Below are positions 1,377 through 18,282 of a stretch of DNA of 64,000 nt, piece by piece. The stretch comes from Gemmatimonadota bacterium (GTDB lineage: Bacteria > Gemmatimonadota > Gemmatimonadetes > Palauibacterales > Palauibacteraceae): positions 3,232,001 to 3,296,000 of the forward strand of contig OY762926.1 of the NCBI GenBank assembly GCA_963666735.1, written 5' to 3'. The notes beneath the pieces were generated by a model that saw nothing but the letters and a program-made list of their open reading frames with translations, did no database searches and had not been told where the DNA came from. The stretch's first letter is position 1. Each line of letters starts with the position of its first letter. A program made the translations under genes and the position numbers.

Positions 1377-1450
<74 letters not shown>

Positions 1451-1995: not shown

Positions 1996-2069
1996 CGGGG
2001 CGTGGCTCAGTCCGGTAGAGCGCTGCGTTCGGGACGCAGAGGTCCCCGGTTCAAATCCGGGCGCCCCGA
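1996..2069 (+). tRNA. tRNA-Pro(CGG)
   Basis: Acceptor CGGGGCG/CGCCCCG, anticodon arm CTGCG-TTCGGGA-CGCAG. Confidence 0.97.
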
Positions 2070-2248
2070 TTATATCCCCTGGCCCATCGCGCTGGGCGTA
2101 CTGTTCCGCCCGCCCGGGCTATGCGATAACCTCCCGGATTACGCGGGCCGCCGAAGGCGGTCGTAGCGAAATCCGGGCGCCGCGGCCCGGTCAACATGCT
2201 GATGGCGTCGGGCTTGGAGCGTTCACTGCCGCCGGAGAGATTCACGCG

Positions 2249-3206: not shown

Positions 3207-3257
3207 CACATGTAGGGATTGATCCTGACGATCCGGGAAGTCTGCCCGTAGGGAGGG
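3207..3257 (+). pseudogene. Relic of XRE-HTH antitoxin N-terminus
   Basis: 3217-3257 matches 9263-9303 at 37/41 nt (IDPDDPGSLPxGR). Confidence 0.7.
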
Positions 3258-3338
3258 GCGGGCATTGGAGAGGCACCCGCCCGGGAAAAGAAATTGCGCA
3301 AGGTGGTTGAAAGCGAGCCTCTCGAAGCCCGGGGAACA

Positions 3339-6197
3339 ATGACACCGAACGAGTTCATTGCGAAGTGGCAGGCCTCGGAGCTGAAGGAGCGCTCCGCGGC
3401 GCAGGAGCACTTCATCGATCTGTGTCGGCTGCTCGGGGAACCCACACCGGCGGAGGCCGATCCGAAGGGCGAGCACTACTGCTTCGAGCGCGGGGCGCGG
3501 AAGGACTCCGGCGGGGACGGATGGGCGGACGTGTGGAAGCGGCACTGCTTTGCGTGGGAGTACAAGGGGAAGCACGCCGACCTCGACGCCGCGTTCGACC
3601 AGTTGAGACAGTACGCGCTCGCGCTCGAGAACCCGCCGCTCCTGATCGTCTCGGACATGCGCCGGTTCCGGATCCGGACGAACTGGACGAACTCCGTGAG
3701 CAAGACGCTGGAGTTCAAACTGGACGATCTCGCCGACGCCGCCGTCCGGGACAAGCTCAAGTGGGCGATGTCCGATCCAGAGCGGCTACGGCCGGGCGAG
3801 ACCCGCCAGACGCTGACCGAACGCGCCGCGCAAACGTTCGCGCAGCTCGCGCAGTCGCTCAGGGACCACGGCCACGCCCCACACGAGGTGGCGCACTTCG
3901 TGAACCGCCTCGTGTTCTGCATGTTCGCCGAGGACGTGGGGCTGCTCCCCGGCGAGATGTTCACCCGCATGCTCAAGCACGCGCGCCAAGAGCCCGAGCA
4001 GTTCGCCATCTTGGCGCGCGACCTGTTCGGCGCGATGTCGGCCGGGGGCCGCGTCGGGTTCGAGACCGTCCAGTGGTTCAACGGCGGGCTGTTCGAGGAC
4101 GACGCGACCCTCCCCATGGACAAGGAGCAGATCGAGACGACGCTTGAAGCGTCCGAACTCGACTGGTCCAACATCGATCCCTCGATCCTCGGCACGCTGT
4201 TCGAACGCGGTCTCGACCCGGACAAACGCTCGCAGCTCGGAGCGCACTACACGGACCGGGACAAGATCATGCGGATCATCGATCCCGTGATCGTCCGCCC
4301 GTGGCTCGCAGAGTGGGGGACCGCGAAAGCCCGGATCGCCGACAGCCTCGAACGCGCAAACGCGGCGAAATCAAAGGCCGCGACTACGCGAAACCGCAAA
4401 CAAGCGGAGAACTCGCTCGGCTCGTTCCTCGAGCGGCTACGGAAGTTCACCGTGCTCGATCCGGCCTGCGGCTCCGGCAACTTCCTCTACCTCGCGCTCC
4501 ACTCCCTCCACGACCTGGAACACCGAGTGCAGCTGGAAGCCGAGGCGATGGGACTTCAGCGCGCTTTCCCATCGGTCGGTCCCGCCAACGTGAAGGGAAT
4601 CGAGTTGAACGCGTACGCGGCGGAGTTGGCGCGCGTATCGGTGTGGATCGGCGAGATTCAGTGGATGCGGCGCAACGGGTTTCCGGGCTCGCGCGAGCCG
4701 GTCCTCGATCCGCTGGAGACGATCGAATGCCGCGACGCGATCATGGCCTCGGAGGGCGGCGAGCCGGAGTGGCCCGAGGCGGATGTCATCATCGGCAACC
4801 CGCCGTTTCTGGGCGGCAAGCTGCTCATCACAAACCTCGGCGAGGAATACGTCTCGACCCTGTTCCGGGTGTACGAGGACCGGGTGCCCCGCGAAGCTGA
4901 CCTCGTCTGCTACTGGTTCGTGAAGGCCGGCGAACACTTGGGCAAAGGGGCGTCGAAGCGGGTCGGCATGGTCGCGACCAACTCGATTCGGGGCGGAGCA
5001 AACCGCCGGGCGCTGGAGCGGGCGACGGACGGCAGGCCGATCTTCGACGCGTGGAGCGACGAGCCGTGGGTGGTGGATGGGGCGGCCGTGCGCGTCTCGC
5101 TCGTGTGCTTCTCACAATCTGAGGACGAACTCACGCCGGGGCGCCGGCTCGACGGCGAGGCAGTGGACGAGATTTACACGGACCTGTCGGCGCGTCGCGG
5201 CGAGGCTGGCGTCGACCTTACGAAGGCGCGGCGCCTCCCTCAAAACGCCGGCGTGGCCTTCATGGGCGACACCAAGGGTGGCCCGTTCGATGTTCCTGGT
5301 GAGGTCGCCCGAGAGTGGCTTCGGGAACCCTCCAATCCCAACGGCCGTCCCAACTCGGACGTACTCGCACCGTGGATGAACGGCATGGCCATCACCCGGC
5401 GCCCCGCCGACAAGTGGGTCGTCGACTTCGGCTGGAACATGGTGAAGGAGGAAGCCGCCCTGTACGAGGCTCCGTTCGAGCATGCCCAGGAACACGTCTT
5501 CCCGATGCGGCAGCGCAATCGGCGCGAGGCGTACCGCATAAACTGGTGGCGACACGTCGAGCCGAGACAGGGCATGTGGAAGGCTCTCGACGGGCTGTCT
5601 CGGTACATCGTCACACCCACCGTTGCCAAACACCGCCTCTTCGCTTGGCTCGACGCCCGGATCTGCCCCGACCATCAGCTCATCGTCATCGCGCGCGACG
5701 ACGACACCACGTTCGGGATCCTGCACAGCCGCTTCCACGAGGTCTGGTCGCTCCGCAAGGGCACCTCGCTCGGGAAAGGGAACGACCCCCGCTACACCCC
5801 CACCACAACCTTCGAGACCTTCCCCTTCCCGGAAGGACTCTCGCCCGACGTCTCCGCCACGGACTACGTGACGGACCCGCGCGCCCAGGCGATCGCTTCC
5901 GCGGCACGTCGGCTCGTCGAACTCCGCGACCGCTGGCTTAACCCGCCCGAGTTGGTGGAGTGGGTTGAGGAACCCGTCCCCGGCTATCCCCCGCGCCCGG
6001 TCCCCCGCGACGAAAAGGCGACTGCGCTCAGGAGGCGCACCCTCACCAACCTCTACAACACCCGCCCACAATGGCTCCTCGATGCCCACGCGCAACTCGA
6101 CGCCGCTGTAGCCGCCGCCTACGGCTGGCCCAGCGACATCACCAACGACGTGGCGCTACGGAAGCTCCTTGCACGAAACCGGTCGGACTACACTTAG
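3339..6197 (+). CDS. MmeI/YeeA-like type IIG/IIL restriction-modification enzyme (N6-adenine MTase with N-terminal nuclease-like domain)
   Basis: LDPACGSGNF (motif I), GNPPF (motif IV), LGAHYT, N-terminal D...WEYK, C-terminal TLTNLYN/LDAAVAAAYGW. Confidence 0.9.
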   Translation: MTPNEFIAKWQASELKERSAAQEHFIDLCRLLGEPTPAEADPKGEHYCFERGARKDSGGDGWADVWKRHCFAWEYKGKHADLDAAFDQLRQYALALENPPLLIVSDMRRFRIRTNWTNSVSKTLEFKLDDLADAAVRDKLKWAMSDPERLRPGETRQTLTERAAQTFAQLAQSLRDHGHAPHEVAHFVNRLVFCMFAEDVGLLPGEMFTRMLKHARQEPEQFAILARDLFGAMSAGGRVGFETVQWFNGGLFEDDATLPMDKEQIETTLEASELDWSNIDPSILGTLFERGLDPDKRSQLGAHYTDRDKIMRIIDPVIVRPWLAEWGTAKARIADSLERANAAKSKAATTRNRKQAENSLGSFLERLRKFTVLDPACGSGNFLYLALHSLHDLEHRVQLEAEAMGLQRAFPSVGPANVKGIELNAYAAELARVSVWIGEIQWMRRNGFPGSREPVLDPLETIECRDAIMASEGGEPEWPEADVIIGNPPFLGGKLLITNLGEEYVSTLFRVYEDRVPREADLVCYWFVKAGEHLGKGASKRVGMVATNSIRGGANRRALERATDGRPIFDAWSDEPWVVDGAAVRVSLVCFSQSEDELTPGRRLDGEAVDEIYTDLSARRGEAGVDLTKARRLPQNAGVAFMGDTKGGPFDVPGEVAREWLREPSNPNGRPNSDVLAPWMNGMAITRRPADKWVVDFGWNMVKEEAALYEAPFEHAQEHVFPMRQRNRREAYRINWWRHVEPRQGMWKALDGLSRYIVTPTVAKHRLFAWLDARICPDHQLIVIARDDDTTFGILHSRFHEVWSLRKGTSLGKGNDPRYTPTTTFETFPFPEGLSPDVSATDYVTDPRAQAIASAARRLVELRDRWLNPPELVEWVEEPVPGYPPRPVPRDEKATALRRRTLTNLYNTRPQWLLDAHAQLDAAVAAAYGWPSDITNDVALRKLLARNRSDYT

Positions 6198-6298
6198 CTT
6201 GTCCCCGATATGCAAGCCGCCTTGCGAGGGACTCCCGAGAGGATATGACCCCCAGATTCTGGATCCTAAGTTCCAAATGCGAGGATGGGTGAACCTTC

Positions 6299-7264
6299 CT
6301 ACCACTTGTACGGTGTGACATCAAACGTGAACGATGTCCCATGAAGCTCTTGTTTCAAGGGTCGCATCATCGTTTCATGCCACTCCGCTCTCGCGACTTC
6401 CTCACCCGGCCTGAAGCGGTCGATAAGAACGCGCAACGCGTCCAGTAGAAACCACCGCGCATAGCTCGCCACGCTCTCCATATCTACAGGCGACCGTGCC
6501 GGCATAATGGAACCCTTCCCCGCATCATCCAGGCGAAAGGTCTTGAGAAAACCACCACTCGCATGTGCCTCACTCGACCATCGACGATACAGCGTCTCGT
6601 AGTCATCCAACCACCCAAGATGCTGAGCAAGCTCCCACAAATTGTTCGGACCATCCCACAACGAGTACCAACGCCTGTACTTCTCTTGTCTCTGAACCTC
6701 GTCCAGCACGCCTCGCATGTAAGGAGCATCAAGAACCCTCTGCAACCGCCCTAACTCCTGATCAACTCGCTCCAATATCTCATCAGGAATATCCCGCATG
6801 AAGTCGTCCGATAGTTCCCCATCGTGAATCCGCGTATACCAGCGTATCCGATCACGGACATTATTGTATATCCATGCCAACGCGCGACGATCGGTGTTCG
6901 CTTCACAAATGTACTTGATACCAAGCGCCGCTTCGAACGACCCGCGCAACATCATCTTTGCGGGATCGACACAGGAATTGGACAAAGATGCCTCAATGGC
7001 GTCCGTGGTCTCAATGATGTGTCGAAAAAGGATCACGGGTGCTGTGAACGCCTCTGGACGTATCCAATCCGGTCGCGTTTGAGCGATCCGCGCAAAAGCC
7101 TGTGTGGAGTAGTTGATAGCTTCGTGCAGCATAGGTCTGGCGACCTCGATCAGGCCGCTTGCACGCTCTACTGCGGCAGCTCGATCCAACATGGGTCTAA
7201 ACGCGTTGGTTGACGCGGCCTTCAGTCGCTCCACCATCTCAGTCTTGGCTTCGGGTGTCAGCAC
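6299..7264 (-). CDS. DUF5677-like helical protein (possible HEPN-related)
   Basis: R-x-x-x-E motifs (MLRGSFE), LYRRWSSEAH; lower GC; start GTG 7264 or the ATG nine codons later. Confidence 0.6.
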   Translation of the reverse strand: MLTPEAKTEMVERLKAASTNAFRPMLDRAAAVERASGLIEVARPMLHEAINYSTQAFARIAQTRPDWIRPEAFTAPVILFRHIIETTDAIEASLSNSCVDPAKMMLRGSFEAALGIKYICEANTDRRALAWIYNNVRDRIRWYTRIHDGELSDDFMRDIPDEILERVDQELGRLQRVLDAPYMRGVLDEVQRQEKYRRWYSLWDGPNNLWELAQHLGWLDDYETLYRRWSSEAHASGGFLKTFRLDDAGKGSIMPARSPVDMESVASYARWFLLDALRVLIDRFRPGEEVARAEWHETMMRPLKQELHGTSFTFDVTPYKW

Positions 7265-7442
7265 GCCCAAGCAGTTCGACGGCCTGATACCGCGAGACCG
7301 TAGGGTAGTCGTGGAGGAAATCGTCAAGTCGGTCACCCGCTTCGAGATGCTCCATCAGTATCCGCACCGGAACCCTCGTGCCGGAGAACACCGGAATCCC
7401 GCCTAAGATGTCCGGGTCCCTGTCGATAAGCCTGTCCGTCAT
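7239..7442 (-). CDS. DUF433 antitoxin, C-terminus replaced
   Basis: IDRDPDILGGIPVFSGTRVPV motif; about 91% nt identity to 11703-11877, diverging at 7268. Confidence 0.85.
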   Translation of the reverse strand: MTDRLIDRDPDILGGIPVFSGTRVPVRILMEHLEAGDRLDDFLHDYPTVSRYQAVELLGRADTRSQD

Positions 7443-7618
7443 GATTGCCTCCGTCGGCGATCTCTTGCTGGCTCCCGCAGAGCACGCAGTCTAACGATAG
7501 CCCCATCCGACACGCCTCTGCATCTCTCCTCGAAGCAGGTCCGAGGATCGAGCCACTCCAGACCGCTTCAGTTCGTCACGCAGGCCCGCCGGATCGGACC
7601 GTGCCGGTGCACTCACGT

Positions 7619-8428
7619 TCACGATCCGGTCGTTGAGTCCGAAGCGGCCCCGTCCCTCGGACACACGGATCTCATGTAGCACTCGTCGCATTCCGGTGCG
7701 CGCCTCGCGTGACACCACCTGTTCCCCAGATGCCATGCTGGCCAGTCGAGTTCCCCCGGCCACTCCGGGTTGAGTTCGCGAGCGCGCAGAGGAAGCCGGA
7801 GTCTCTGCTTGTCCTTCGTCGAGCGCAGCTGGCTGTGTTCGAGCCTGTCGAGAAGGCCCAGTCGCTCGAACACCCGCAGGACGTGAGTGTCGACCGCAAT
7901 GTCGGGCATGGGCGTCGTGAGGCGGATGCCGAAGTCACGAATCAGGATGTTCACGGCCATGTTGGCGATCTTCGGGCCCACTCCGTCGAAGGCCAGGAAC
8001 CGTCTGGCAACGGCAGCGCCGCTGCTCCCGTCGGCCCAGATACGCGAGGCGTCCCCGCCGTACCTGTCCCCGACGCGCCGGATGGCCGCCGGAAGCAATC
8101 GTGCCATCTCGGTGCCCAGCCGGTGGCCCGAGGACGCGAGCACGGAGGCCCACTCCTCCTTCGGAAGCCTCAGCAGCGTGTCCAGGTCAAAACCCGAGGC
8201 GGCCTCACGGATCGTGTGTGGAAGACCCCATGCGATGTCGGCTTTCGTTTGCCGGTCCGCGATGCAGGCCAGCACGAACGCGTGCGGGTAACCCTCGAGG
8301 TCGTTCACGAGGTCGCGCGCGTCGTCCTCGACATCGATGCCGCTGACGCCGCGCTTCCGCTCAAGCGACTCCGCCCCGAACCGCTTCAGGCGTGAGGTGA
8401 TATCGTCTACCGGCCGATCTGCCGTCAT
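7619..8428 (-). CDS. HhH-GPD / endonuclease III-like DNA glycosylase with C-terminal Cys cluster
   Basis: FDGVGPKIANMA HhH, IAVDTHVLRV catalytic Asp motif, WCHARRAPECDECYMRSVC Fe-S loop. Confidence 0.85.
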   Translation of the reverse strand: MTADRPVDDITSRLKRFGAESLERKRGVSGIDVEDDARDLVNDLEGYPHAFVLACIADRQTKADIAWGLPHTIREAASGFDLDTLLRLPKEEWASVLASSGHRLGTEMARLLPAAIRRVGDRYGGDASRIWADGSSGAAVARRFLAFDGVGPKIANMAVNILIRDFGIRLTTPMPDIAVDTHVLRVFERLGLLDRLEHSQLRSTKDKQRLRLPLRARELNPEWPGELDWPAWHLGNRWCHARRAPECDECYMRSVCPRDGAASDSTTGS

Positions 8429-8764
8429 CGACACACCATTGACGCTACCGCAGCACCGGGTCGGGGCACTACGGTCCTCGCGCCATCCGCGTGCCCTTCG
8501 CGCCTGCGCAAGCTCATAGCTCGCCTGCATTCGCATCCAGTGATCGGCCGTGCCCCAGCCGAGAGCCTCCAACGCGAGCGCCATGTTCGCCGAGACTCCC
8601 GCCTTCCCGTGCAGTAGGCGCGACAGAGTCCCCCGCTCGCACCCCAGTCGCGAGGCCGTCTCGGTCACGTTCCAGCCGACCTCGTCCATGCTCTCGCGGA
8701 CCACCTCGCCCAGATGCGGAGGGTTGAGCATGGGATCCACGCGCCCGTCTCCTACGCTGTTCAT
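8429..8764 (-). CDS. higA: HigA/VapI-family antitoxin reading through in frame into the glycosylase
   Basis: MLNPPHLGEVVRESM...LSRLLHGKAGVSANMALAL...WMRMQASYEL; no stop before 8428; no higB upstream. Confidence 0.8.
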
Positions 8765-9212
8765 GATCCTTCCTTCATCGCGTCGGCGGCAATCTACCCG
8801 TCGCTCGGATCGCCTCCGGCCTACGTTCGGCCTCCACTCCGTCGGCTGGCCGGCCTGAATCGCGTCAACGCGCCCCACCACACCAAGTACATCACGGAGG
8901 GTTTTCCGGAAACGCGAAAGCCCGTGCCGGAGCACGGGCCTCGGAAGGAGGGCAAGTCTACGCTTGCGTCTCGAAAGGGAGCCTGTGTCATGGGGCCGGG
9001 GGCGTCAAGGTTCCGGTGCGGGGCAGGACTGGCATCGACAGCTGGTCCAAGGACTACTTGCATGCCGGACCAGCCGTTAGGAGTTTCGTCCAAGACGATC
9101 CATCGGACCACCGCCCAGATAGGGAGACACGGAGTCCGATCATTTAGACCCCAGGGACGCCTCGTGCGTCCCTGTTTTTCTTGGATTGACCCGACCAAGT
9201 GGCAGGCGGCAC

Positions 9213-10772
9213 ATGTCGACGGAACAGGAATCGGCAAGGACCCAGCCAACGTCCACGGTGACGATTGATCCGGACGACCCGGGAAGCCTGCCCGAAGGGA
9301 GGGTCGACTACGCGGCCCTGGACCGCACGACCGAGGCGGACCTGATCGCGCAGCAACGCGAGGACGACGCCGAAGCGATGCGGGACATGGCGCGGTTCGC
9401 GCGCCGGGTTCGCAGGCGCATGGGCCTGACGCAGGTGGAGTTTGCGCGGCGCATCGACGTATCGCACGAGACGATCCGCAACTGGGAACAGGGCAAGCGA
9501 GGCCCCACAGGCGCCGCCAGAACGTTGCTCCGGATCCTGGACAAAGCCCCGGAGATCGCGCTTCGGGTGCTGAACCGGGATGCCGCCGCTTTGGTCATCG
9601 TCTTGCTGGGCATGAGCCTCGCAGCTTGTCAGCACGATACCCGCACGCACGCCGGCGTCTCGGTTCAAGTAGAGGACAGCGCGGGCGTGCGGATCGTCGA
9701 GTACGTGGGAACCCCAATTGTCAACGCGTCGTTCCAGTTTCCCGCGCAGCCACGTTACCGCCACGGCGCCAACCCGGGTGACTACACCTTCCAGGGGATC
9801 CACCCCGGCACCATCCTCCCGGACGGGAGCGCCGTAGTATCGGATGTGTTCAACGGCGAACTGGTCGTGCTGAGCCCGGACGGCGCCACGCATGAAGTGC
9901 TTGCCGGGCCGGGAGAGGGACCGGGCGAAGTCGGCTACGTCGGGGCTGTGTATGCGCTGGGGCAGGACAGGGTTCTCGCGGCCGATCGCGACCTGGGCCG
10001 CGTGACGGTCTTCGCCGGCGGGTCGGTCGAGCGCACGGTGGATATCCGGAGCGCCTACGGCCTCGGTGTCCTCGGAATCAGTTCATCCGGACAGCTGCTG
10101 CTGGCCACGAGCAGCTTCCGCTCCGGTTTTGAAGAGCCGTGGCTTCCGGGACACATGGCCCGGTTCGACATGGAAACCAGCGCCCTCGACACGGTGGCAT
10201 CCTATGACTTCGCGTCGCGACCTCCTCCGGGGCTGCGGTGGGACCCCATCGGTGCATTCGGCCGGGTTGCGGGCGTCGCCGGTCAATTCGTCTACACGCG
10301 TTCCGACAAGCCCGAGGTCACTTGGCGTAGTCCTGGCGGGACCGTTACGCAGATCGTTCGCTGGCAGGCCAAGGCGGCTCCCCTGACCGAGGAGTTGCTC
10401 GCGGGCATCGAGGCCGGACTCCGCGCGGGCAACCGGATGGCCAATCCCGTCGCTGCGGATGCCGCTATCGATCGCATGACCGATGAGCACATGGCCGTGT
10501 ACCGGGCGAGGATCGGCGGGCCGATGCCGCTGTTTGCTATTCCCTTCGGAGACCTCGAGGGTCGGGTGTGGTTGCCTTCCTGGCGCGCGGGCGCTGCGCG
10601 CGAAGGCGCGTCGCACTACACCGTCATTTCCGCCGACGGAGAGTGGCTGGGGACCGTGGAGGGCCCGCCGGGACTTCGGATCCTGGACGTGGCCCACGGG
10701 CTCGTGCTCGGCGTCCAGCGGGACGAAATGGATGTGGAGAGCGTCGTGGTGTACGAGATGGTGAGGGAATAG
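9213..10772 (+). CDS. XRE-HTH antitoxin-like domain fused to lipoprotein 6-bladed beta-propeller
   Basis: GLTQVEFARRIDVSHETIRNWEQGKRGP HTH, then hydrophobic LVIVLLGMSLAAC lipobox, DSAGVRIVE and GEGPGE propeller motifs. Confidence 0.8.
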   Translation: MSTEQESARTQPTSTVTIDPDDPGSLPEGRVDYAALDRTTEADLIAQQREDDAEAMRDMARFARRVRRRMGLTQVEFARRIDVSHETIRNWEQGKRGPTGAARTLLRILDKAPEIALRVLNRDAAALVIVLLGMSLAACQHDTRTHAGVSVQVEDSAGVRIVEYVGTPIVNASFQFPAQPRYRHGANPGDYTFQGIHPGTILPDGSAVVSDVFNGELVVLSPDGATHEVLAGPGEGPGEVGYVGAVYALGQDRVLAADRDLGRVTVFAGGSVERTVDIRSAYGLGVLGISSSGQLLLATSSFRSGFEEPWLPGHMARFDMETSALDTVASYDFASRPPPGLRWDPIGAFGRVAGVAGQFVYTRSDKPEVTWRSPGGTVTQIVRWQAKAAPLTEELLAGIEAGLRAGNRMANPVAADAAIDRMTDEHMAVYRARIGGPMPLFAIPFGDLEGRVWLPSWRAGAAREGASHYTVISADGEWLGTVEGPPGLRILDVAHGLVLGVQRDEMDVESVVVYEMVRE

Positions 10773-10836
10773 CGTCCCCGCCGTACCTGCCCGCGATGTG
10801 CCGAATGGCCGCGGGAAGCAGTCGTGCCATCTTGGT
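10772..10836 (-). pseudogene. Internal fragment of the EndoIII-like gene
   Basis: 57/65 nt identical to 8049-8113 (KMARLLPAAIRHIAGRYGGDA). Confidence 0.75.
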
Positions 10837-10856
10837 CGCCGGGGATTGCGAGGCCC

Positions 10857-11357
10857 TCACCGGTCCACACCGGATCCGAGCACGGAGGCCCCGCAGGCCG
10901 GACACCGTCCCCGCAGCGCCCCGTCTCGGATGTGGCCGCACTCCCGGCACGTTCGCTTCTGCCGCGCGCGCCGCCCGATGACCGCGAGCGCGTCCGCCGT
11001 CTCGTCCCTCGCCTCTACCTCCGGCGCGGCGTGGGTCGGGGACGGAAGGCGTCGGCGCGTATCGCGGTCGATGCGCACCGGGACGGCCGGGAGGATTGCG
11101 TCCCGCCCCCCGCGCTGGAGTCCGGGGACGGGTCGCCGCCTGCGCTGCGTCCAGCGTCGGGCGCAGCGCGTTGCAGTCGCGCGTGTCCGATGACGCGTCC
11201 CGCATCCGTCCTTCACGGTCTCACCGGGGAGGCCCTCCGACGGCGTGCAGGTCCACGCCTCCACCGGCCGCCGCGTCCGCTGCGCCAGCCCCTCCGCAAT
11301 CCGCCGCAACCAACGAACCCGCGCCGTCAAGCCAACCTTCTCGTTTCTCTCCTGCAT
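10857..11357 (-). CDS. Possible hypothetical protein with C-terminal zinc ribbon
   Basis: CRECGHIRDGALRGRCPACG at C-terminus; remainder low complexity. Confidence 0.35.
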   Translation of the reverse strand: MQERNEKVGLTARVRWLRRIAEGLAQRTRRPVEAWTCTPSEGLPGETVKDGCGTRHRTRATATRCARRWTQRRRRPVPGLQRGGRDAILPAVPVRIDRDTRRRLPSPTHAAPEVEARDETADALAVIGRRARQKRTCRECGHIRDGALRGRCPACGASVLGSGVDR

Positions 11358-11702
11358 TCTGTCAGTACGGTGTGGACCGGCCGGACCCGAATGTAGCACG
11401 GGCAGCCAAGTCGGGGTTAACCCCTCCTCGGCGCTCCGCAACCCGATCGGGGGCGCCGTGTCGGAATCCCAAGAGGGTGGCCGTCGATTAAGCGCTGGCT
11501 GTGCCAAGAGAGATGCGGAGCCCCGGCGGATGGGGCTATCGTTAGACGGGATGGGCGGTCGGTGTGAGCGAAGACGCAGTCGCCGACTGTTGGCGCGCGC
11601 GCCGAACATCTCGAACGTGCGGGCCCGGGACCCTGGGGAAGGGCAGGAACGGTGACATCCAAGACTCCAGGCAGTGATCGGGAGGCGCGGGCGGAGGCAA
11701 TC

Positions 11703-11927
11703 ATGACGGACAAGCTTATCGACAGGAACCCCGACATCCTGGGCGGGACTCCCGTGTTCTCCGGCACGAGGGTCCCAGTGCGGATACTCATGGAGCATCT
11801 CGAAGCGGGGGACCGACTCGACGATTTCCTCGACGACTACCCTACGGTCTCGCGGGATCAGGCGGTCGAACTGCTTGAGCTTGCCGCGACGATGCTGGTG
11901 GGCGGTGGCAATGAGAGTCCTGTTTGA
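11703..11927 (+). CDS. DUF433 antitoxin
   Basis: IDRNPDILGGTPVFSGTRVPV...FLDDYPTV; GGAGG RBS. Confidence 0.9.
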   Translation: MTDKLIDRNPDILGGTPVFSGTRVPVRILMEHLEAGDRLDDFLDDYPTVSRDQAVELLELAATMLVGGGNESPV

Positions 11928-11929
11928 CT
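11911..11929 (+). pseudogene. Six-codon stub of DUF5615 PIN-like toxin
   Basis: ATG overlapping DUF433 end encodes MRVLFD, the usual partner's N-terminus, then runs into the hicB 3' end. Confidence 0.55.
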
Positions 11930-11947
11930 TGCGCCCGGCCGACTCCG

Positions 11948-12376
11948 CTAAACGGTCGCGTCCTCCGCGACGAGCCGCCGCCCCACCTTCGCGAGCGCTC
12001 TCTCGATCTGTCCGATGTGTGAGCGGTGATTCGGGTTCAGAAGCTTCCGAACCGCTCCCTCGCTTAGGCCCAGGCGCCGCGCCAGACCGACCTTCGTAAG
12101 CCCCTGCTCCCGCATGGCGGTGTAGAGAGCGAGCTTCGCCGCAACGACCAGTGGGACCGCGATCATCTCCTGCTCGCCCACCGCGGTCTCCGGCACCGGA
12201 ATGTCCTCGCGACACTGCATGTACGAACCGAGCGCCACGGCTAGGGCGTCCTCGGCCATGGCCAAGGCTTCGTCCCGTTCGTCGCCGCATGTCAGCGCCT
12301 CCGGCACATTCGGGAACGACACCGAGTAGCCGCCGTTCTTCTCGGGCGTCAGCTCACAAGGATAAACGTACCGCAT
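11948..12376 (-). CDS. hicB: HicB-family antitoxin with C-terminal HTH
   Basis: GGYSVSFPNVPEALTCGDERDEALAMAEDAL; HTH LARRLGLSEGAVRKLL. Confidence 0.92.
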   Translation of the reverse strand: MRYVYPCELTPEKNGGYSVSFPNVPEALTCGDERDEALAMAEDALAVALGSYMQCREDIPVPETAVGEQEMIAVPLVVAAKLALYTAMREQGLTKVGLARRLGLSEGAVRKLLNPNHRSHIGQIERALAKVGRRLVAEDATV

Positions 12377-12436
12377 CAGAAGTCCTCCTCACGGATTTCC
12401 AGTTGCCGCTCGCCGCACGAACTCCGCACCGTTCAC
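12376..12436 (-). pseudogene. hicA: HicA toxin with internal deletion
   Basis: GTG NGAEFVRRA joined out of frame to QLEIREEDF-TGA overlapping the hicB ATG. Confidence 0.65.
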
Positions 12437-12446
12437 TTCTTCAAGA

Positions 12447-12464
12447 TCGTACGCAAAGGTACGA
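12447..12464. promoter_or_regulatory. Probable hicAB operator
   Basis: Perfect inverted repeat TCGTAC-N6-GTACGA just upstream of the hicA start. Confidence 0.55.
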
Positions 12465-12822
12465 AAGTCGAGTTGCCTTCGATCAGCAGGTACATGCGCC
12501 AACTCCGTCGTTGAGGCTTGTGCCATCCAGCCGTACGTTGGCTGGGAATAGTCATGCGACCGGCGCGGTTGCCGTAGCGACCCGATTGAACGGTTGCCTC
12601 GGGGCGGCAGCTCTCTCATGCGGTGAGAGGCTGCCGCCCCGCTTACATCCCCGACGCGATGAGTCTGCGTGGGGAGGAGTGAGCAAACCGGCTTTCCTTG
12701 AGTATGCCAAGCAACGTCATCGCGCGTTCAACGCGGTGAGCTGCCGCGCCGCCGCGGGGTGCGAGCCGACCGGGACACAACCGGCCGGCAGGGTGTATCA
12801 CGATCCAGATGCGGGGGTGCGG

Positions 12823-13136
12823 ATGAAGACACCAGACTCGATTGCCGTCGACCGGGCGCTCCCGCTCGAGCGGAAGTTCCCCAACGAGGAAACGCGACGC
12901 GCCATGGCTGAAATCGACGAGATGATAAGACGCGCGCAGAGCGTTTCGCGACCGCGGACGAGCCGCTTGAGGAACTCGAAGACAATCATCCTCAGCCGGA
13001 AGGCGACGCGAAGGTGCCGAACGCTGAAACCCGCCGGGCCATGGCCGAGTCGGAGGAAATGATGAGACGAGGGACGGCTCGATTCGCGAGCGCGGAAGAG
13101 ATGTTTGCCGAGCTTGAGAAAGCCGGCGACCATTAA
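12823..13136 (+). pseudogene. Two tandem RelB/DinJ antitoxin C-terminal relics
   Basis: LPLERKFPNEETRRAMAE.. and KVPNAETRRAMAESEEM...FASAEEMFAELE*, like intact dinJ LVPNAATIEAMRE. Confidence 0.7.
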
Positions 13137-13150
13137 GACCGGCCCGGGCG

Positions 13151-13633
13151 CTACCCGGCGAATTCGTACACGAGGTCGTCGCCGGACACACCCGTGATTC
13201 GAAGAACGACCGTGCCCGCGCCGGGTCCGTAGGACTGCTGGTAGCGCGTCCTGACCAGGGCGAGGTCGAAGTCGAGCGACTCGGTGACCCACGCCTCGCA
13301 GGCATCGCCGTTCGCCTCATGAGCGAGCACGGCCCGAAGTTGCACGGGATCCGACTCCAGGAACGTCTTGGAGATCACCAACGTGAAGTCGTGCCTCCGG
13401 CAGCCGCCGGCGTACGAGACTTCGATGGTCAGCCCGTGTCCGTCGACGGCGGCCGAGTTCACGACGTAGGGGTCGCCTCCGCGGTTGCGGCCGTCCTCGA
13501 CCACGACGTTGCGTTCGGGGGCACCTGGAGCGACCGGCGATTCACCGCATCCGAGCGCGGCGAACAGGCCGAGCAGAAGCCCGGTCGAGGCCGCAACCCT
13601 CGCCGCAGGACCCAGTCGGGCTAGCAGGGGCCG
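13151..13633 (-). CDS. Hypothetical lipoprotein lacking a canonical start codon
   Basis: Open frame from 13633 with LLLGLFAALGC lipobox; SYAGGC...DACEA domain; first GTG only at 13504. Confidence 0.6.
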   Translation of the reverse strand, partial: RPLLARLGPAARVAASTGLLLGLFAALGCGESPVAPGAPERNVVVEDGRNRGGDPYVVNSAAVDGHGLTIEVSYAGGCRRHDFTLVISKTFLESDPVQLRAVLAHEANGDACEAWVTESLDFDLALVRTRYQQSYGPGAGTVVLRITGVSGDDLVYEFAG

Positions 13634-14464
13634 CTAAGGGCGCAGCAGCAAGCCTGCGGTCAGTCCCGCTTCGCTTGCCTTCATGTTTGAACGAACGGTG
13701 AAGACGACGTCTTCGAACTCCGTGATCCACGCTTCCCGGGCGTAGACCGAATAGCTCGCCTCGACCCGCAGCGCGACCCGCTCGCTCAACGTCTTCTCCA
13801 GTCCGATCCCGGACTTCCAGACCGGAAAGTTCATGTCGCGGTCCTCCCGGCCGGACTCGAACTGTGAGGGATCGCAGGGTTCGGTCGTGAAACAGCCGTC
13901 GAAGCGGTTGGTGAACTGCGCACCGGCAAAGCGGACTCCGGCGAGGACGTGCAGGCTGATGCCTCGCGACTGCAAGCCCCCCGGACTGCCGCCGAGCCTC
14001 AGCGTCATCCCGTAGCTGGTTTCCTTACCGAGGTTCCACCGGACCGGCCAACTTTCGCCGAGTTGCTTTCGTTCCGGCGAAATCCCCACGCCCGCGAACT
14101 GCGCCTCCGCGGCGCCGCCGTGCGTCTCCACGTCAACCGCCGCATCCAGAAAATAGGCCCCGCTGAAGAACGGCAGCCGGTACCCCGCGACCAAACCGGC
14201 CCCGTACGAGAGACCGTCCCCGGAGACCTCGTCTTCGAAGACCTGCCCGCGCCTGGGCTCCGGCACCAGCGTGTTGGGCGCCGTGTTGTCGACCGACCTC
14301 TGCATCGTCGCGCTCAGCTGCCCGAGCGGGAACGCCACGCCCACGTAGAAGCCGCCGTTTCCGGCCGAGCCATCGTCCGCTTGACCGGCAAGACCCGCTA
14401 TGGCTCCGAACGCCGCCAAAACGAGGCAGCCAAGCAAGCCTGTGGTCGACACTCGTGGGAACAT
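13634..14464 (-). CDS. Outer-membrane beta-barrel (porin-like) protein
   Basis: Signal peptide, GGFYVG, alternating beta strands, ALRVEASY. Confidence 0.7.
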   Translation of the reverse strand: MFPRVSTTGLLGCLVLAAFGAIAGLAGQADDGSAGNGGFYVGVAFPLGQLSATMQRSVDNTAPNTLVPEPRRGQVFEDEVSGDGLSYGAGLVAGYRLPFFSGAYFLDAAVDVETHGGAAEAQFAGVGISPERKQLGESWPVRWNLGKETSYGMTLRLGGSPGGLQSRGISLHVLAGVRFAGAQFTNRFDGCFTTEPCDPSQFESGREDRDMNFPVWKSGIGLEKTLSERVALRVEASYSVYAREAWITEFEDVVFTVRSNMKASEAGLTAGLLLRP

Positions 14465-14465
14465 C

Positions 14466-15734
14466 TCACGCTCCGTTCTGTGCAGGGCCAGACGCGCACG
14501 TCCGATCGACCAGATACCGGTGAAGGTACGGGATGCCGAATTCGCCGTACGTGGCGCCCCAGATCTCGTCACGGCTCGCGAGGGCAACCGCGAGACGGGG
14601 GTCCCAAGGTACCAGCGAAGTGCGGCCGTGCCCGATCTCTACCGTACCTTCCAGCGTTCCATCCGAATCGTATACCTCCCACACATCGACACGGTCCTCA
14701 CGCATCTCTCGAAGCAACCAGATGGTTCCGTCCGTTCCTGCGACGACCTGCCGGACCGGGGGGAGGTATTCCGGAACCCAAAAAACTCCGCGAGCAGCAC
14801 GACGCCTGCGCTCGAGTGTTGTCTCGGTTAGCTGAAGACCTGAGGAAGGGTAGTAGTCCCCGGCCCTCCAGCCTGCGTACTCGTCCGCCAAGCGGCGTTC
14901 CATCGCGCGGGTGACTTCGCGCGGTTCGTACTCGACGGACCGGTGCAGGAGCGTGTCTCCGCGGATCGATATCACCAGAAGGTCGAAGGTCGGCGGGGTC
15001 GCGTCTTCACGCACTTCCCCGATCCGTACGACCGCGGCGCCGTCGGGCTTGACCGCGGTGAGGTATTCGCCGAGGCCGAGAGGGGGGAGGTCCCTGAGGG
15101 GGTGTGTGCCGGGGAACAACCCGGCGTCCCTCTCATTCTCAATCGCGTTACCCGGCCATTCCATCTTGGCGATCGTGTCGAGGACTTCGCCGGATCGTGA
15201 GAGGCGGCGCAACGCGAGTCCTGGGTTCTCGCCTCGGGATGACAAGGCCAGTCCATCGGTGATGCGGCGCCTGCCAATGAGCGTGCCGTCGGCGAGCATG
15301 CGGCCCGGGGTCAACAACGACCCCTCCTCGGGCACGCTCCGCGAGAACTGGATGATTTGGTCCGGCCGGCGCTCGTCCGCGGTGAACAGCTGGATCCGGT
15401 TGAAGTCGGCTACCCAGAGGGTGTCTCCGATCCAGCCGACGGCGCGCGCCGCAAGCTCTATATCGCCTGGCCCCTGGCCAGCACGACCGATCCGGCGAAG
15501 CACTTGGCCATCAAGAGAGAAGACCGTGACCGCGGGCACCATGGCCTGAGCGACGTAGAGGGCGCTGTCGGGACCGATCGCGAGATCCAGGACGCTCGCA
15601 ACGAGGTCCGTGCTTTCCACGGATCCGATCCGCAAAACCTCTTCCAACTGCCAGGGCGTCGGACACGCGACCTGTGCGCGCATCCCCGCCGGAGCGCAAA
15701 GAAGCACGGCAATCGCACAAATCAGCAGACGCAC
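14466..15734 (-). CDS. 6-bladed beta-propeller protein
   Basis: GAGG RBS + GTG, signal peptide, IGRAGQGPGD, GDTLWVAD, DGTIW motifs. Confidence 0.8.
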   Translation of the reverse strand: MRLLICAIAVLLCAPAGMRAQVACPTPWQLEEVLRIGSVESTDLVASVLDLAIGPDSALYVAQAMVPAVTVFSLDGQVLRRIGRAGQGPGDIELAARAVGWIGDTLWVADFNRIQLFTADERRPDQIIQFSRSVPEEGSLLTPGRMLADGTLIGRRRITDGLALSSRGENPGLALRRLSRSGEVLDTIAKMEWPGNAIENERDAGLFPGTHPLRDLPPLGLGEYLTAVKPDGAAVVRIGEVREDATPPTFDLLVISIRGDTLLHRSVEYEPREVTRAMERRLADEYAGWRAGDYYPSSGLQLTETTLERRRRAARGVFWVPEYLPPVRQVVAGTDGTIWLLREMREDRVDVWEVYDSDGTLEGTVEIGHGRTSLVPWDPRLAVALASRDEIWGATYGEFGIPYLHRYLVDRTCASGPAQNGA

Positions 15735-15752
15735 ATATGCCTCCCCCTCGTT

Positions 15753-15872
15753 CAGCAGGCGCGATACGGTCCCCCGCCCGCACCCCAGGCGCGAGGCCGT
15801 CTCGGTCACGTTCCAGCCGACCTCGTCCATGCTCTCGCGGATCAGTTCGCCCAATGCGGAGGGTTGAACATC
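15753..15872 (-). pseudogene. Frameshifted, truncated HigA relic
   Basis: Closely matches 8612-8732; 1-nt deletion after NPPH; ends at propeller RBS. Confidence 0.8.
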
Positions 15873-16026
15873 GGGCCCGCGGACAAAGACCCGAGTCACG
15901 TTCACGGGAGTCGGCAGCATCATGAACCTGAGGATCGAGTTGCCTGGTGCCGACAGTTCCCTCCCCCCAGCCGGGAGGCGTCGCGGGACTACCCGAAGAG
16001 GCAATCGCCGTGAACGACCGCGAGGG

Positions 16027-16308
16027 TTAGAGGCCAAGTGCCGAATGGGAGCCCAGACGCACCAGACGCAGGATATCGGTCCCGGACTTCTGGTAAATCA
16101 TCAGCAGGTCCGGCTTCAGGTGGCAGTCGCGGAAATCTTGCCACTCGCCGCTCAGCGCGTGGTCGTGGTGACGGGGCTCCAGCGGCCGGTCGTTGGCCAG
16201 GGTATCCACGACTGTGGCCAGGATGGCGTCGAGGTATGCTCGGTGCCGGCCCCGCGACTCCCGCTTGTAGTCGCGCTTGAACCGGCTGGTGCGCTCAATC
16301 GTCCGCAC
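16027..16308 (-). CDS. yafQ: YafQ-family mRNA interferase toxin
   Basis: FKRDYK, DHALSGEW, RDCHLKPD, LVRLGSHS. Confidence 0.92.
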   Translation of the reverse strand: MRTIERTSRFKRDYKRESRGRHRAYLDAILATVVDTLANDRPLEPRHHDHALSGEWQDFRDCHLKPDLLMIYQKSGTDILRLVRLGSHSALGL

Positions 16309-16555
16309 GCAGATCGTCGAAGAGGTCCTCCACGCTGGCGAACGGCGGGAGGTCACCCCGGCGGGCTTCCCTCATCGCTTCAATGGTGGCGGCGTTGGGA
16401 ACCAGCGGCGCGAACGGCAGCGCTTTCTCGTGGGCGACCTTGGTCAGCAGCAGGCGCAACGCGCCGGAGACGGTCAAGCCCATGGCCGCCAGCACCGTGG
16501 CCGCCTCCTCCTTTATTGCTTCGTCAATGCGGGCTTGGACGAGCTGGTTCGGCAT
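16295..16555 (-). CDS. dinJ: RelB/DinJ antitoxin
   Basis: VQARIDEAIKEEAATVLAAMGLTVS...LPF...PNAATIEAM; overlaps yafQ. Confidence 0.92.
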   Translation of the reverse strand: MPNQLVQARIDEAIKEEAATVLAAMGLTVSGALRLLLTKVAHEKALPFAPLVPNAATIEAMREARRGDLPPFASVEDLFDDLRADD

Positions 16556-16614
16556 GTCGAGCATCCATCTTTCGGGTTGACGTACAATATCATGCAGGAT
16601 CGCAGGCTGGCCGG

Positions 16615-16785
16615 TCAAGGTTTCGCATCGAGCAAGTCCACGGACAGGCAACCCTCAACCGCCTCGCGGATGTTTCGCAGCAGCTCGTCGAACGACTCGC
16701 CTTGGGATACGCATCCCGCGATGGCCGGTACTTCCGCCCAGTAGCCGCCTTCCTCCGCCCGATGAACGACCATCACCGCGCCCAT
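16615..16785 (-). CDS. Short HicB-like antitoxin (56 aa, absent from ORF track)
   Basis: MGAVMVVHRAEEGGYWAEVPAIAGCVSQGESFDELLRNIREAVEGCL. Confidence 0.8.
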   Translation of the reverse strand: MGAVMVVHRAEEGGYWAEVPAIAGCVSQGESFDELLRNIREAVEGCLSVDLLDAKP

Positions 16786-16802
16786 CGGTCATGAACGTTG
16801 GC

Positions 16803-17225
16803 TCAGCGGGTTCGCCAGAGCCGCAGCGACGAGATGCCCCCGGCTCTCGAGGCGCGACGCACATATCGTTCGTCCGCCGTGACGAACACACCTCCGAGGC
16901 CAAGCGCCACGGCATGGTACGCGGCGTCGTAGAAGGCGACTCCGTACGTCACAGCCAGAGACACGGTGCGCCTTCTCCAGTTTGCGTCGAGCCGCGCCTC
17001 CGTCAGGCCGAAGTCGGCCAGCGATGCCAGGAGCGCGTCGGCGTCATCGGGAAACCGCCTCGCCAGCGTGTTGCCCACCTCGTAGATCCAGAGTTGAGGA
17101 ACGACCAGATCGAGGGTCCCCGACACCGCCTCCTCACGTAGCGCGAGCGCCGCGTCCGTGTCCTGCTCGCTGCCGCCCGGAAGAACCCACTTCAGAAGAA
17201 CCGACGCGTCCGGCGTTACGATCAC
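16803..17225 (-). CDS. vapC: VapC PIN-domain toxin
   Basis: DASVLLKW, YEVGN, FYDAAY, VTAD. Confidence 0.9.
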   Translation of the reverse strand: MIVTPDASVLLKWVLPGGSEQDTDAALALREEAVSGTLDLVVPQLWIYEVGNTLARRFPDDADALLASLADFGLTEARLDANWRRRTVSLAVTYGVAFYDAAYHAVALGLGGVFVTADERYVRRASRAGGISSLRLWRTR

Positions 17226-17455
17226 GGCAGCCGTTGCTCCCGCTCCTCCCGTATCCATCGGACGATCTGGCCGGTCTCGACGGCTGGCAATCGCGCTCGC
17301 AATGCGTCCATCCGGGCGGAGGCGTCCCGCTTCCCGGAAGCACCCGACCACTCGCGGATGGCGGCGTTGACGGCGCGGCTGCGGGTACCGCGCGGCAGCC
17401 TCTGCAACACACGCCACGAGTCCTCGTCCATCATGATGTTGACCCGTCGAGCCAT
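17222..17455 (-). CDS. RHH-like antitoxin
   Basis: RVNIMMDED...RSRAVNAAI...IVRWIREERE; 4-nt overlap with vapC. Confidence 0.8.
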   Translation of the reverse strand: MARRVNIMMDEDSWRVLQRLPRGTRSRAVNAAIREWSGASGKRDASARMDALRARLPAVETGQIVRWIREEREQRLP

Positions 17456-17483
17456 ATTGTTTTCCTCCCGAGTACGCCGGACA

Positions 17484-17502
17484 GTGTGTAAAGATTACAC
17501 AC
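17484..17502. promoter_or_regulatory. TA operator palindrome
   Basis: GTGTGTAA-AGA-TTACACAC upstream of the antitoxin. Confidence 0.65.
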
Positions 17503-17572
17503 CATCACGCATCCTCGCAAACCTCCCCGGCGTGACCTTGATCGATGGCACCAGAATGGCATCATTATTACC

Positions 17573-17854
17573 ATGGAAACTACCATCGACAAAGCTGGCC
17601 GCCTGGTTGTGCCCAAGGCGGTTCGGGAGGCGAGCCGGTTACGCCCCGGAACCCGCGTCCGCTTCCGGGTCCGGGACGGCCGCGTCGAGATCGAACCCGT
17701 ACCGCTGGACGTCTCGCTTGAACGGCATGGTTCCGCCGTGGTCGCGGTGCCGCGAGAGGGACGGCCCGTCCTGACGGCGGCGGAGGTCGAGGAGACGACC
17801 TTCGGCCTCCGCTCCGGCGCACCCTCGGCAGAGGGGACTCAAGGGGCCGGGTGA
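17573..17854 (+). CDS. AbrB/MazE-family antitoxin
   Basis: TTIDKAGRLVVPKAVRE...LRPG. Confidence 0.9.
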   Translation: METTIDKAGRLVVPKAVREASRLRPGTRVRFRVRDGRVEIEPVPLDVSLERHGSAVVAVPREGRPVLTAAEVEETTFGLRSGAPSAEGTQGAG

Positions 17855-18282
17855 CCCGTTACCTCTGCGACACAAGCGCCCTCGTCGCGACCGTTTGCTC
17901 ATGGCATGAACACCACGCGCGAACCCGCGCCGCGATCGAGCGACGCGAGCGGGGAGGCGAAGAGCTTGTTCTTGCCGCTCATTCGCTGGCGGAAACGTAC
18001 GCGGTCCTCACCCGGCTACCCGGACCGAATCGCCTGCGATCCGGGGACGCCCTCGCGCTGCTGGAGGCCAACTGGGGCGACACCCCGGTCGTGCACCTCA
18101 CGGCGGCCGAGACCTGGCGCACGCTGCGCAGAGCACGGCGAAGCGGAGTGATCGGCGGACAGACGTACGACATGCTCATCGCGGCTAGTGCGCTGAAGGC
18201 TCGCGCCTCGACGGTCATCACCTGGAACGTCCGCCGCTTTGCCCCCGTGGCACGCAAGATCGACATCGAGGCGCCCCTCTGA
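17851..18282 (+). CDS. vapC: VapC PIN-domain toxin
   Basis: DTSALV, LAETYAVLTR, YDMLI, TWNVRRF. Confidence 0.9.
   Translation: MTRYLCDTSALVATVCSWHEHHARTRAAIERRERGGEELVLAAHSLAETYAVLTRLPGPNRLRSGDALALLEANWGDTPVVHLTAAETWRTLRRARRSGVIGGQTYDMLIAASALKARASTVITWNVRRFAPVARKIDIEAPL

Follow-up and report, generated by a model that had tools for sequence, protein, structure and literature searches.

A gene-swapping hotspot beside a tRNA cluster in a Gemmatimonadota genome is dense in toxin-antitoxin genes and their remnants

Defense islands are clusters of restriction-modification, toxin-antitoxin (TA) and abortive-infection genes, and chromosomal integrons are cassette arrays that often include TA cassettes. 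In Alteromonas, tRNA-adjacent additive flexible islands gather cassettes, for which the excerpted account invokes illegitimate recombination (PMC4898812). For the orphan immunity arrays of the Vibrio cholerae type VI secretion system (T6SS) and the orphan modules of Rhs and contact-dependent inhibition (CDI) systems, the excerpt of PMC5361080 proposes sequential displacement by homology-facilitated illegitimate recombination (HFIR). Here we analyze a stretch of 64,000 nucleotides from a Gemmatimonadota bacterium (G000:C1:3232001-3296000, hereafter the window), taken from a genome that is a single 3.98-Mb contig of 68.5% GC. It holds a gene-swapping hotspot that lies next to a tRNA cluster and is dense in TA genes and remnants. 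We consider it probable that the locus is a hypervariable island between the tRNA genes and ahcY, in which joins between antitoxins and unrelated "cargo" genes are scars of illegitimate deletions and insertions, combined with a decay that takes toxins first.

In our analysis, the island appears to fit best an additive flexible genomic island dominated by TA modules and defense genes. It shares with the Alteromonas islands, as far as the excerpt of PMC4898812 describes them, a fixed site beside tRNA genes, cassettes that vary by strain and species, the same cassettes across species regardless of phylogeny, and the inclusion of post-segregational killing genes. It differs from them in consisting mostly of TA genes and relics, in single-gene modules with almost no spacer, in having no tRNA-derived direct repeats at cassettes and no integrase or insertion sequence (IS) in G000, and in a between-species cassette identity of 68-99% instead of near-identity. 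A shared tRNA site and order-independent shared cassettes were both found, and a partial tRNA repeat downstream of inserted cassettes was not. The likeness to the T6SS and Rhs orphan arrays, within what the excerpt of PMC5361080 covers, is that antidotes outlive toxins and pile up without an integrase, and that orphans match intact pairs elsewhere: here a RelB-b relic resembles the intact YafQ-b/RelB-b pair of relative G010, and a HigB fragment lies beside HigA in relative G017. Unlike those arrays, the island has no constant 5' anchor gene, draws on seven unrelated antitoxin families on both strands, does not order its orphans behind one active pair and carries cargo unrelated to toxin systems. 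Our literature search found no paper that proposes TA genes as HFIR anchors.

Known defense systems cluster at this site as they do in defense islands: G000 carries a type IIG restriction-modification (RM) enzyme, and its relatives carry type I RM, two ThsB genes, HEPN/MNT and AAA_21 genes. The island departs from that pattern in its much decayed content and in the lipoprotein propellers and outer-membrane protein interleaved with it. Compact gene-sized modules, many TA genes and an order that varies between relatives recall chromosomal integrons, but the island has no adjacent IntI and no attC-like sites, its genes lie on both strands instead of forming co-oriented cassettes, and its junctions fall inside coding sequences.

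Extent, variability and TA content of the island

The variable region, as delimited by blastn against relatives, covers window positions ~2200-20980 (~19 kb) between a six-tRNA cluster and ahcY; the first-pass annotation, which had drawn it at 3207..18282, was too narrow. On the left, the homology block ends at 2199-2201, ~130 nt past tRNA-Pro, against all relatives, and on the right homology with all of them resumes at ~20980, just past the ahcY stop. The tRNA cluster has a match in 5/5 relatives (722-751 of 751 bases, 87-96% identity), ahcY was detected in 30 of 31 related genomes, and the two are syntenic in all five contiguous same-genus genomes examined. The gap between them measures 18.9 kb in G000 and 31.2, 22.0, 27.7, 11.4 and 46.1 kb in G017, G014, G011, G006 and G010, respectively. 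Since high GC yields many spurious open reading frames (ORFs), genes in G000 were called by third-position GC and a codon model, and all 219 stop-to-stop frames of ≥45 aa in 2050-19100 were scanned in six frames with Pfam and then with NCBIfam and PADLOC, supplemented by repeat search, BLAST and, for tRNAs, ARAGORN.

Gene order in the island is not fixed. Of the 19,151 nt extracted from G000 (flanks included), 11,241 have a counterpart, 68-99% identical, in one or more of the five relatives, where the order differs. The modules that recur in shuffled order are HigA, XRE, a RelB C-terminal relic, HicB-HTH, orf117, YafQ-RelB, short HicB, PIN-orf77, AbrB-PIN, orf237, the EndoIII-like gene and propeller 1. 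As the first-pass annotation had proposed checking, the same antitoxin module meets different neighbors in different genomes: XRE is followed by a propeller gene in G000 and G046, by DUF433 in G014 and by a RelB-YafQ pair in G047, and HigA by the EndoIII-like gene or by propeller 2. In G017, G006 and, twice, in G010, XRE is interrupted near codon 73, where a RelB C-terminus takes over. The resulting chimeric ORFs (XRE-N to about residue 73, then RelB-C) are 91-96 aa long in G017 (L002:3268-3555) and G010 (L008:15047-15319 and 16105-16377), two species in which the frame has stayed open, and the G006 form is shorter, at 57 aa. They could be hybrid antitoxins or neutral deletion products; by sequence we infer that they would fit a deletion within a G047-like XRE-RelB-YafQ arrangement.

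The relatives differ in cargo. G017 carries a SNF2/PLD helicase and an Eco57I-like enzyme; G014 two Thoeris ThsB TIR genes; G011 another MmeI, HEPN/MNT and an ABC system; G006 FitAB; and G010 type I RM, ThiF/E2, MazF and three YafQ-RelB pairs. Transposases (IS3, IS1595, IS256, IS5-type DDE and IS110) occur in the hotspot of three of the five. The two ThsB-type TIR genes of G014 (L003 5787-8257) are flanked by IS3 and IS256 transposases, with no ThsA among the called genes. Phage_integrase matched none of the 129 called genes in the five relatives' islands (one G010 gene spanning a stitch was omitted). For G000 itself, the earlier statement that mobile machinery is absent stands, in that the six-frame Pfam scan of the island detected no integrase or transposase. 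A search for the attC consensus (RYYYAAC ... GTTRRRY) with a complementarity filter, a crude pattern, gave 0 candidates across the six islands (158 kb). The G000 genome has eight tyrosine recombinases, all at least 300 kb away.

Thirteen antitoxin genes or relics had been counted in the first pass, and Pfam, NCBIfam and BLAST support two each of XRE, DUF433, HigA and HicB, three RelB/DinJ and one AbrB. The remaining one, orf77, was read as a ribbon-helix-helix-like antitoxin; it is a presumed, VapB-like one, as placement upstream of a PIN gene is the only basis for the assignment and no family matches it at E≤1. The count of three intact toxins (YafQ and two PIN proteins, by Pfam), all at the tRNA-distal end, holds. 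Adjacent genes of known families, as in type II systems, were found for YafQ with RelB and for AbrB/MazE with PIN, and the third pair combines PIN with the family-less orf77. Elsewhere in G000, 13 paralogue loci were examined and intact pairs are kept (three HigBA, one DUF433-DUF5615), so the orphan antitoxin state is a property of the island. Its TA density and orphan state are clearly special.

Anatomy of the antitoxin-cargo joins

All five joins between an antitoxin and a cargo gene that had been described are present, and HigA with the EndoIII-like gene, XRE with propeller 1 and the HigA relic with propeller 2 each share one open frame. The concern that they might be assembly artifacts did not materialize, as independent contigs uphold the G000 arrangement. 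Contigs of an independent study (X2) match without a single difference over 6038-8537, 9470-10644, 10622-15819, 16390-17075, 17420-18129, 18107-19385 and 19364-21385, and these span the DUF433>DUF5677, HigA>EndoIII, XRE>propeller and HigA-relic>propeller junctions. The XRE-relic>MmeI junction is spanned by an X2 contig with 8 differences, and contigs of a third study (X5) agree with the G000 order.

The history of the XRE-propeller join can be read from three genomes. XRE ends in RVLGGERRPGSRQ and a stop in G014, where DUF433 starts 25 nt further. In G000, the XRE sequence runs only as far as RVL, from where the open frame leads straight into NRDAAALVIVLLGMSLAAC, the propeller signal peptide, while the last XRE codons and stop persist at 11665, upstream of DUF433 copy 2; 9573-11664 (2.09 kb) thereby occupies the place that holds ~21 nt in G014. 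In G046, XRE keeps its stop and is followed by a spacer and by the propeller's native start MTIRVKK; exactly 134 nt of this arrangement are missing from G000. Downstream of the propeller, G046 has a complete EndoIII-like cassette, of which G000 retains 65 nt and the upstream region. Because both genes are separate in G046, each with its own stop, spacer or start, the XRE::propeller 1 fusion is, on this alignment, a 134-bp deletion between prior neighbors, not a capture. Sequence comparison thus shows for at least one antitoxin::cargo fusion that it arose from a small deletion between existing neighbors.

The island HigA can be aligned with an intact HigBA paralogue at 2.03 Mb; the two part (~8461) with 8 codons left to the stop, and the island frame reads on into the leader and own ATG of the EndoIII-like gene. 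The latter is a stand-alone cassette of ~270 aa in G014, G010, G046 and G047 (tblastn q169-438, q149-432, q175-438), and the HigA>EndoIII junction is common to G017, where it is out of frame, and apparently to G010 and G037. The last ~9 codons of DUF433 copy 1 are unlike those of copy 2 and of G014, with a break at 7261-7268, and the likely DUF5677 ATG (7237) abuts its stop. The HigA relic is cut at about codon 45, and propeller 2 lacks ~17 N-terminal codons that its homologues in G032, G037, G007 and G002 have. Of XRE, 44 nt are left before MmeI; in a whole-genome search they score E 6e-9, and the MmeI ATG follows ~80 nt further on. An X8 contig differs upstream of that ATG, diverging upstream of 3340. 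Cuts also affect non-TA genes: 2.6 kb present in G014 (BlaI and the 5' part of a BlaR1-propeller gene) are missing from G000, with a clean break at 19091/19093. Across the aligned genomes, junctions are shown to cut both TA and non-TA genes.

Cargo lies co-oriented behind an antitoxin for 5 of ~8 cargo genes, a count with a hand-estimated, post hoc P of ~0.04, so that a rule of this kind goes beyond chance only marginally. The island offers a legible record of TA-rich turnover, with intact states, small deletions, fusions and relics aligned across species and strains. Orphan antitoxins and antitoxin-cargo fusions can stem from ordinary deletion between neighbors, which calls for caution toward readings that see in them a capture device.

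Deletion scars weighed against capture and integration

We defined breakpoints as the ends of homology blocks with the five relatives on G000 coordinates, which gave 57 clusters. A gene or relic boundary is no more than 30 nt away for 29 of them, whereas random positions would come that close in 12.9% of cases; this statistic is partly circular (some relic edges were set by homology ends) and blind inside cargo unique to G000. Fifteen of the gene-end breakpoints are at antitoxins, three at toxins and 11 at cargo, each class at ~4x its null share; the expectation that breakpoints are specific to antitoxins is therefore not supported. Modules are gene-sized, of about one gene or TA pair, and breakpoints favor gene ends in general. 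No 7-mer was enriched at 34 junctions (top count 5, null range 4-7), and a search for tRNA-Pro 3' repeats in the six genomes found no distal tRNA-derived repeat bounding any block. Strain contigs (four runs, four further studies; ~85-100% identical to G000) have alternative joints, which fall at the same module edges as in G000 (Table 1). The X8 joints 11950..12405..12909..15854/8895..9572->11950 close on themselves over ~4.6 kb, which reflects either two HicB-HTH copies collapsed in a short-read graph or a tandem or circular form.

In the scenario we favor, new DNA would enter by exchange between relatives, through homologous recombination in conserved flanks or shared modules as well as through illegitimate joins, with IS and integrative elements as occasional vehicles. 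Deletions between tightly packed neighbors would then yield fusions and chimeric ORFs. From TA biology, toxins would be expected to go before antitoxins, by loss or breakage, since a cell with a working toxin dies once the antitoxin is gone; antitoxins and 5' pieces would accumulate as a result. A cargo gene placed directly after an antitoxin would share its transcript by default, and repeated antitoxin segments would probably serve as occasional RecA-type crossover substrates, not as a dedicated landing pad.

Beyond the circularity of the breakpoint statistic, several observations weigh against this scenario. Three junctions, those in DUF433, HigA and XRE, lie no more than 7-10 codons from the end of the antitoxin; a hand estimate expects ~0.65 such cases among ~25 junctions (Poisson P ~0.03, post hoc). 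Three antitoxin-cargo joins are in frame, a 1/27 outcome if independent, with the HigA::EndoIII frame lost in G017. The G000 island itself has no IS, and most events can be read in either direction, as insertion or as deletion. Finally, the X14 joint omits exactly 7,141 nt between two HigA repeats that share a 52-nt identical run, and homologous recombination between antitoxin copies may thus add or remove a multi-kb block. This HigA-bounded block is the best hint that antitoxin repeats are substrates for homologous recombination. The 3' half of the X14 HigA is only 88.5% identical to G000 copy 1, against 98.6% between its 5' half and the relic, a pattern that a simple crossover between the two G000 copies would not give.

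These points bear on the first-pass proposal that antitoxins act as homology anchors for HFIR, capturing cargo serially and putatively donating promoters, in an integron-like array without a recombinase that could also be an anti-addiction bank. We consider this unlikely, although much of what it builds on is sound: the same antitoxin segments have different downstream partners across genomes and strains, the assembly holds, the G000 island has no integrase, transposase or attC, and antitoxin repeats do exist within it (HigA 114 nt, DUF433 199 nt, XRE 44 nt), besides the skipped HigA-bounded block, the end-of-antitoxin junctions and the in-frame fusions just described. The mechanism itself has already been put forward for orphan immunity arrays, in the excerpt of PMC5361080. 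What counts against the proposal is that cargo and toxin gene ends are equally enriched in breakpoints, that XRE::propeller came from a deletion, that a non-TA gene (BlaR1-propeller) is truncated as well, and that junctions share no motif. Moreover, the cut position varies within one antitoxin (XRE at codons 16, ~73 and 105), many TA genes are cut mid-gene whereas anchors should stay intact, genes lie on both strands, IS elements occupy the same hotspot in three of five relatives, and the halves of the X14 HigA do not fit a simple crossover. The sequences suggest that HFIR capture is a possible contributor, but the data are explained without it and several results oppose a main role. No more probable, in our view, is a recombinase-free cassette platform in which antitoxin paralogues would provide portable homology, RecA crossovers (e.g., between HigA copies) would reshuffle multi-kb blocks and selection against antitoxin loss would keep the anchors in place. 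If antitoxin repeats were anchors, the HFIR model for T6SS and Rhs arrays would extend to TA loci, and TA genes would gain a role in genome plasticity.

Integration of whole molecules was weighed in two forms. The island could derive from one or several elements that came in at tRNA-Pro with an integrase and have since lost both this gene and their att sites. In agreement with this, the island begins ~130 nt past tRNA-Pro in 6/6 genomes, 13-15 nt from the tRNA 3' half recur ~100 nt downstream in all of them, and propeller 2 homologues lie, in three relatives, beside DNA close to tyrosine integrase genes in G000. We give this a low probability, as Phage_integrase is found neither in the G000 island nor among the 129 genes called in those of the five relatives, no distal tRNA repeat surrounds any block, and content varies by module and not by whole element. 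Lower still is the probability of Campbell-type integration, in which a circle bearing an antitoxin 5' part and cargo would undergo a single crossover with a chromosomal antitoxin to leave a 5' relic, the cargo and a full copy in direct orientation. This arrangement does occur three times (XRE 3217/9258, HigA 15884/8764, EndoIII-like 11575/8431), both reciprocal junction types are in G000 and occur singly in strains (u_R-HigA-EndoIII in X14; XRE-side-HigA5'-propeller 2 in X8 and X12), and the X8 joints close a loop. But a crossover predicts a recipient-like 3' part in the full copy, whose actual identity to X14 is 88-93%, against 98.6% on the relic side; the XRE relic shares only 44 nt and no identical stretch beyond 9 nt, not enough for RecA to pair efficiently; the stretch separating the HigA copies holds backbone modules in the relatives' order (XRE, HicB-HTH, orf117) and is no discrete insert; and the loop can be a short-read collapse of two HicB-HTH copies. 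A chimeric metagenome assembly, mixing strains at repeated TA genes, is hardly credible. The source is indeed a metagenome with several co-occurring strains, and repeated TA segments break short-read contigs at 9470/9539 and 15819-15854, but the X2 and X5 contigs agree with G000 and the genome is a single contig.

Feature map and further observations

Table 1. Features of the G000 island and joints seen in strain contigs (window coordinates)
Feature	Position	Strand	Evidence or remark
Six-tRNA cluster (Val, Asp, Ala, Thr, Gly, Pro)	1377..2070	+	ARAGORN; conserved left flank
orf315, membrane-anchored, family-less, low GC3	2249..3196	+	no Pfam, NCBIfam or PADLOC match
XRE relic, codons 2-16 of XRE antitoxin gene	3217..3260	+	44 nt, 88.6% to 9263-9306
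MmeI-like type IIG RM enzyme (cargo)	3339..6197	+	Pfam MmeI_Mtase/hel/N; PADLOC REase_MTase_IIG 1013 bits
DUF5677 protein (cargo)	6299..7237	-	Pfam DUF5677 72 bits
DUF433 copy 1, antitoxin-type	7239..7442	-	Pfam 57.5 bits
HhH-GPD/EndoIII-like gene, own ATG (M169 of long ORF)	7619..8431	-	HhH-GPD E 0.003; TIGR03252 47 bits, below cut-off
HigA antitoxin, without last ~8 codons and stop	8432..8764	-	TIGR02607 68.8 bits, above cut-off
XRE/MqsA-like antitoxin, cut 10 codons before natural stop	9258..9572	+	Pfam HTH_31/HTH_3/MqsA; G014 and G046 alignments
Lipoprotein beta-propeller 1, without first 7 codons, in frame with XRE	9573..10772	+	G046 comparison
Decayed second EndoIII-like cassette: 65 nt mid-gene and G010-type upstream region	10772..11575	-	direct repeat D4, 88%
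Leftover XRE last codons and stop (end coordinate approximate)	11665..11690	+	three-way alignment
DUF433 copy 2	11703..11927	+	Pfam 62.6 bits
HicB-like + HTH protein	11948..12376	-	Pfam HicB_lk_antitox; tblastn
Two tandem partial RelB/DinJ C-termini	12841-12933 and 13014-13136	+	blastp vs G010 RelB-b
orf117 (cargo), GC3 0.87	13151..13504	-	no family match
orf317, outer-membrane beta-barrel-like (cargo)	13634..14419	-	G011 homologue matches OMP_b-brl weakly
Beta-propeller 2, without ~17 native N-terminal codons, in frame with HigA relic	14466..15739	-	homologue N-termini; tblastn
HigA 5' relic, ~codons 1-45	15740..15884	-	direct repeat D3, 114 nt, 88%, 52-nt identical run
Intact YafQ toxin and RelB/DinJ antitoxin	16027-16308 and 16295-16564	-	Pfam 99 and 66.5 bits; NCBIfam
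Short HicB/UPF0150-like orphan	16615..16785	-	Pfam
PIN toxin and upstream orf77	16803-17221 and 17222-17455	-	Pfam PIN; orf77 presumed VapB-type by position
AbrB/MazE antitoxin and PIN/VapC toxin, intact pair	17573-17854 and 17851-18282	+	Pfam; NCBIfam
orf237, 237 aa, family-less	18310..19023	-	no Pfam, NCBIfam or PADLOC match
orf252, 3' relic of BlaR1-propeller gene	19101..19745	+	blastn break 19091/19093; G014 gene 48 tblastn/Pfam
Propeller prop404 and ahcY (S-adenosylhomocysteine hydrolase)	19753-20967 and 20986-22476	-	Pfam; right flank
Strain joint skipping YafQ-RelB pair, 6 other letters at joint	15880->16556		X8, X13, X12
Strain joint, YafQ stop to HicB-HTH 3' fragment	16020<->12138		X8, X13
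Strain joint, HigA-relic::propeller 2 beside XRE side	15854/ATG/8895		X8, X12
Strain joint, EndoIII-like gene with other upstream region	8414->10854		X8
Strain joint, XRE end to HicB-HTH stop	9572->11950		X8
Strain joint, one intact HigA in upstream context of relic	15773->8631		X14

Several of these features can be placed through relatives or strains. The depth bin 2554-3207, within orf315, is near zero in strains X8 and X13. The region of the decayed EndoIII-like cassette at 10853-11329 is 92.7% identical to G010. The two DUF433 copies form an inverted repeat (I1, 199 nt, 90%: 7261-7459 / 11686-11884), and the two RelB relics match the intact G010 RelB-b at 74% over 31 aa (E 2e-14) and 95% over 39 aa (E 1e-25). 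HicB-HTH is complete in G000, G017, G010, G046 and G013 and cut or frameshifted in G014, G011, G006 and G002; a HicA partner for it was found in none of the genomes examined. The homologue of orf317 adjoins ahcY in G011 and G006, and the PIN-orf77 pair is retained in G011 and G047. A relaxed Pfam search gave no assignment for orf77, orf117, orf237, orf315 or orf76, and besides the type IIG enzyme PADLOC returned only weak HTH_VI/RmrA matches (E 5e-6 to 1e-4) on the XRE helix-turn-helix (HTH).

For XRE::propeller 1, a genuine HTH-transmembrane-propeller architecture was considered and rejected, as the HTH is absent from paralogues and orthologues alike and the two parts are distinct genes in G046. 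The paralogues of propeller 1 align only from about residue 130. Homologues of propeller 2 (85-89% nucleotide identity) lie at other loci in four relatives (L031 G002:C45, L032 G007:C57, L030 G032:C112, L033 G037:C18). Those of G002 and G007 adjoin a multi-copy element that G000 carries at up to four sites; at two of these, tyrosine integrases (204 kb and 1.115 Mb) are close by. That of G032 adjoins DNA matching the surroundings of the G000 integrase at 2.934 Mb. Three of the four loci adjoin DNA that lies within a few kb of tyrosine integrase genes in G000. The fourth homologue, in G037, is in a second hotspot 10-15 kb before the window.

At the left edge, the partial copy of the tRNA-Pro 3' half (window 2169-2181) sits inside the conserved flank and may represent the scar of a former att site. 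In G000, the IS-like genes closest to the island are an rve-type transposase (28326-29363) and an HTH_Tnp_1 ORF (30476-30808), ~8-10 kb past it. By tblastn, the orf237 family is present in all six islands, with 1-3 copies that are often in tandem, and it lies directly upstream of a HigA2-type HTH gene in G014 and G006; its ESM Atlas neighbors are unnamed clusters only. In G017, G014, G046 and G013, orf117 is immediately upstream of HicB-HTH on the same strand, while in G000 the two are ~0.77 kb apart with the RelB relics in between. Together, orf117 and HicB-HTH may form a module of two genes, with orf117 standing in for HicA.

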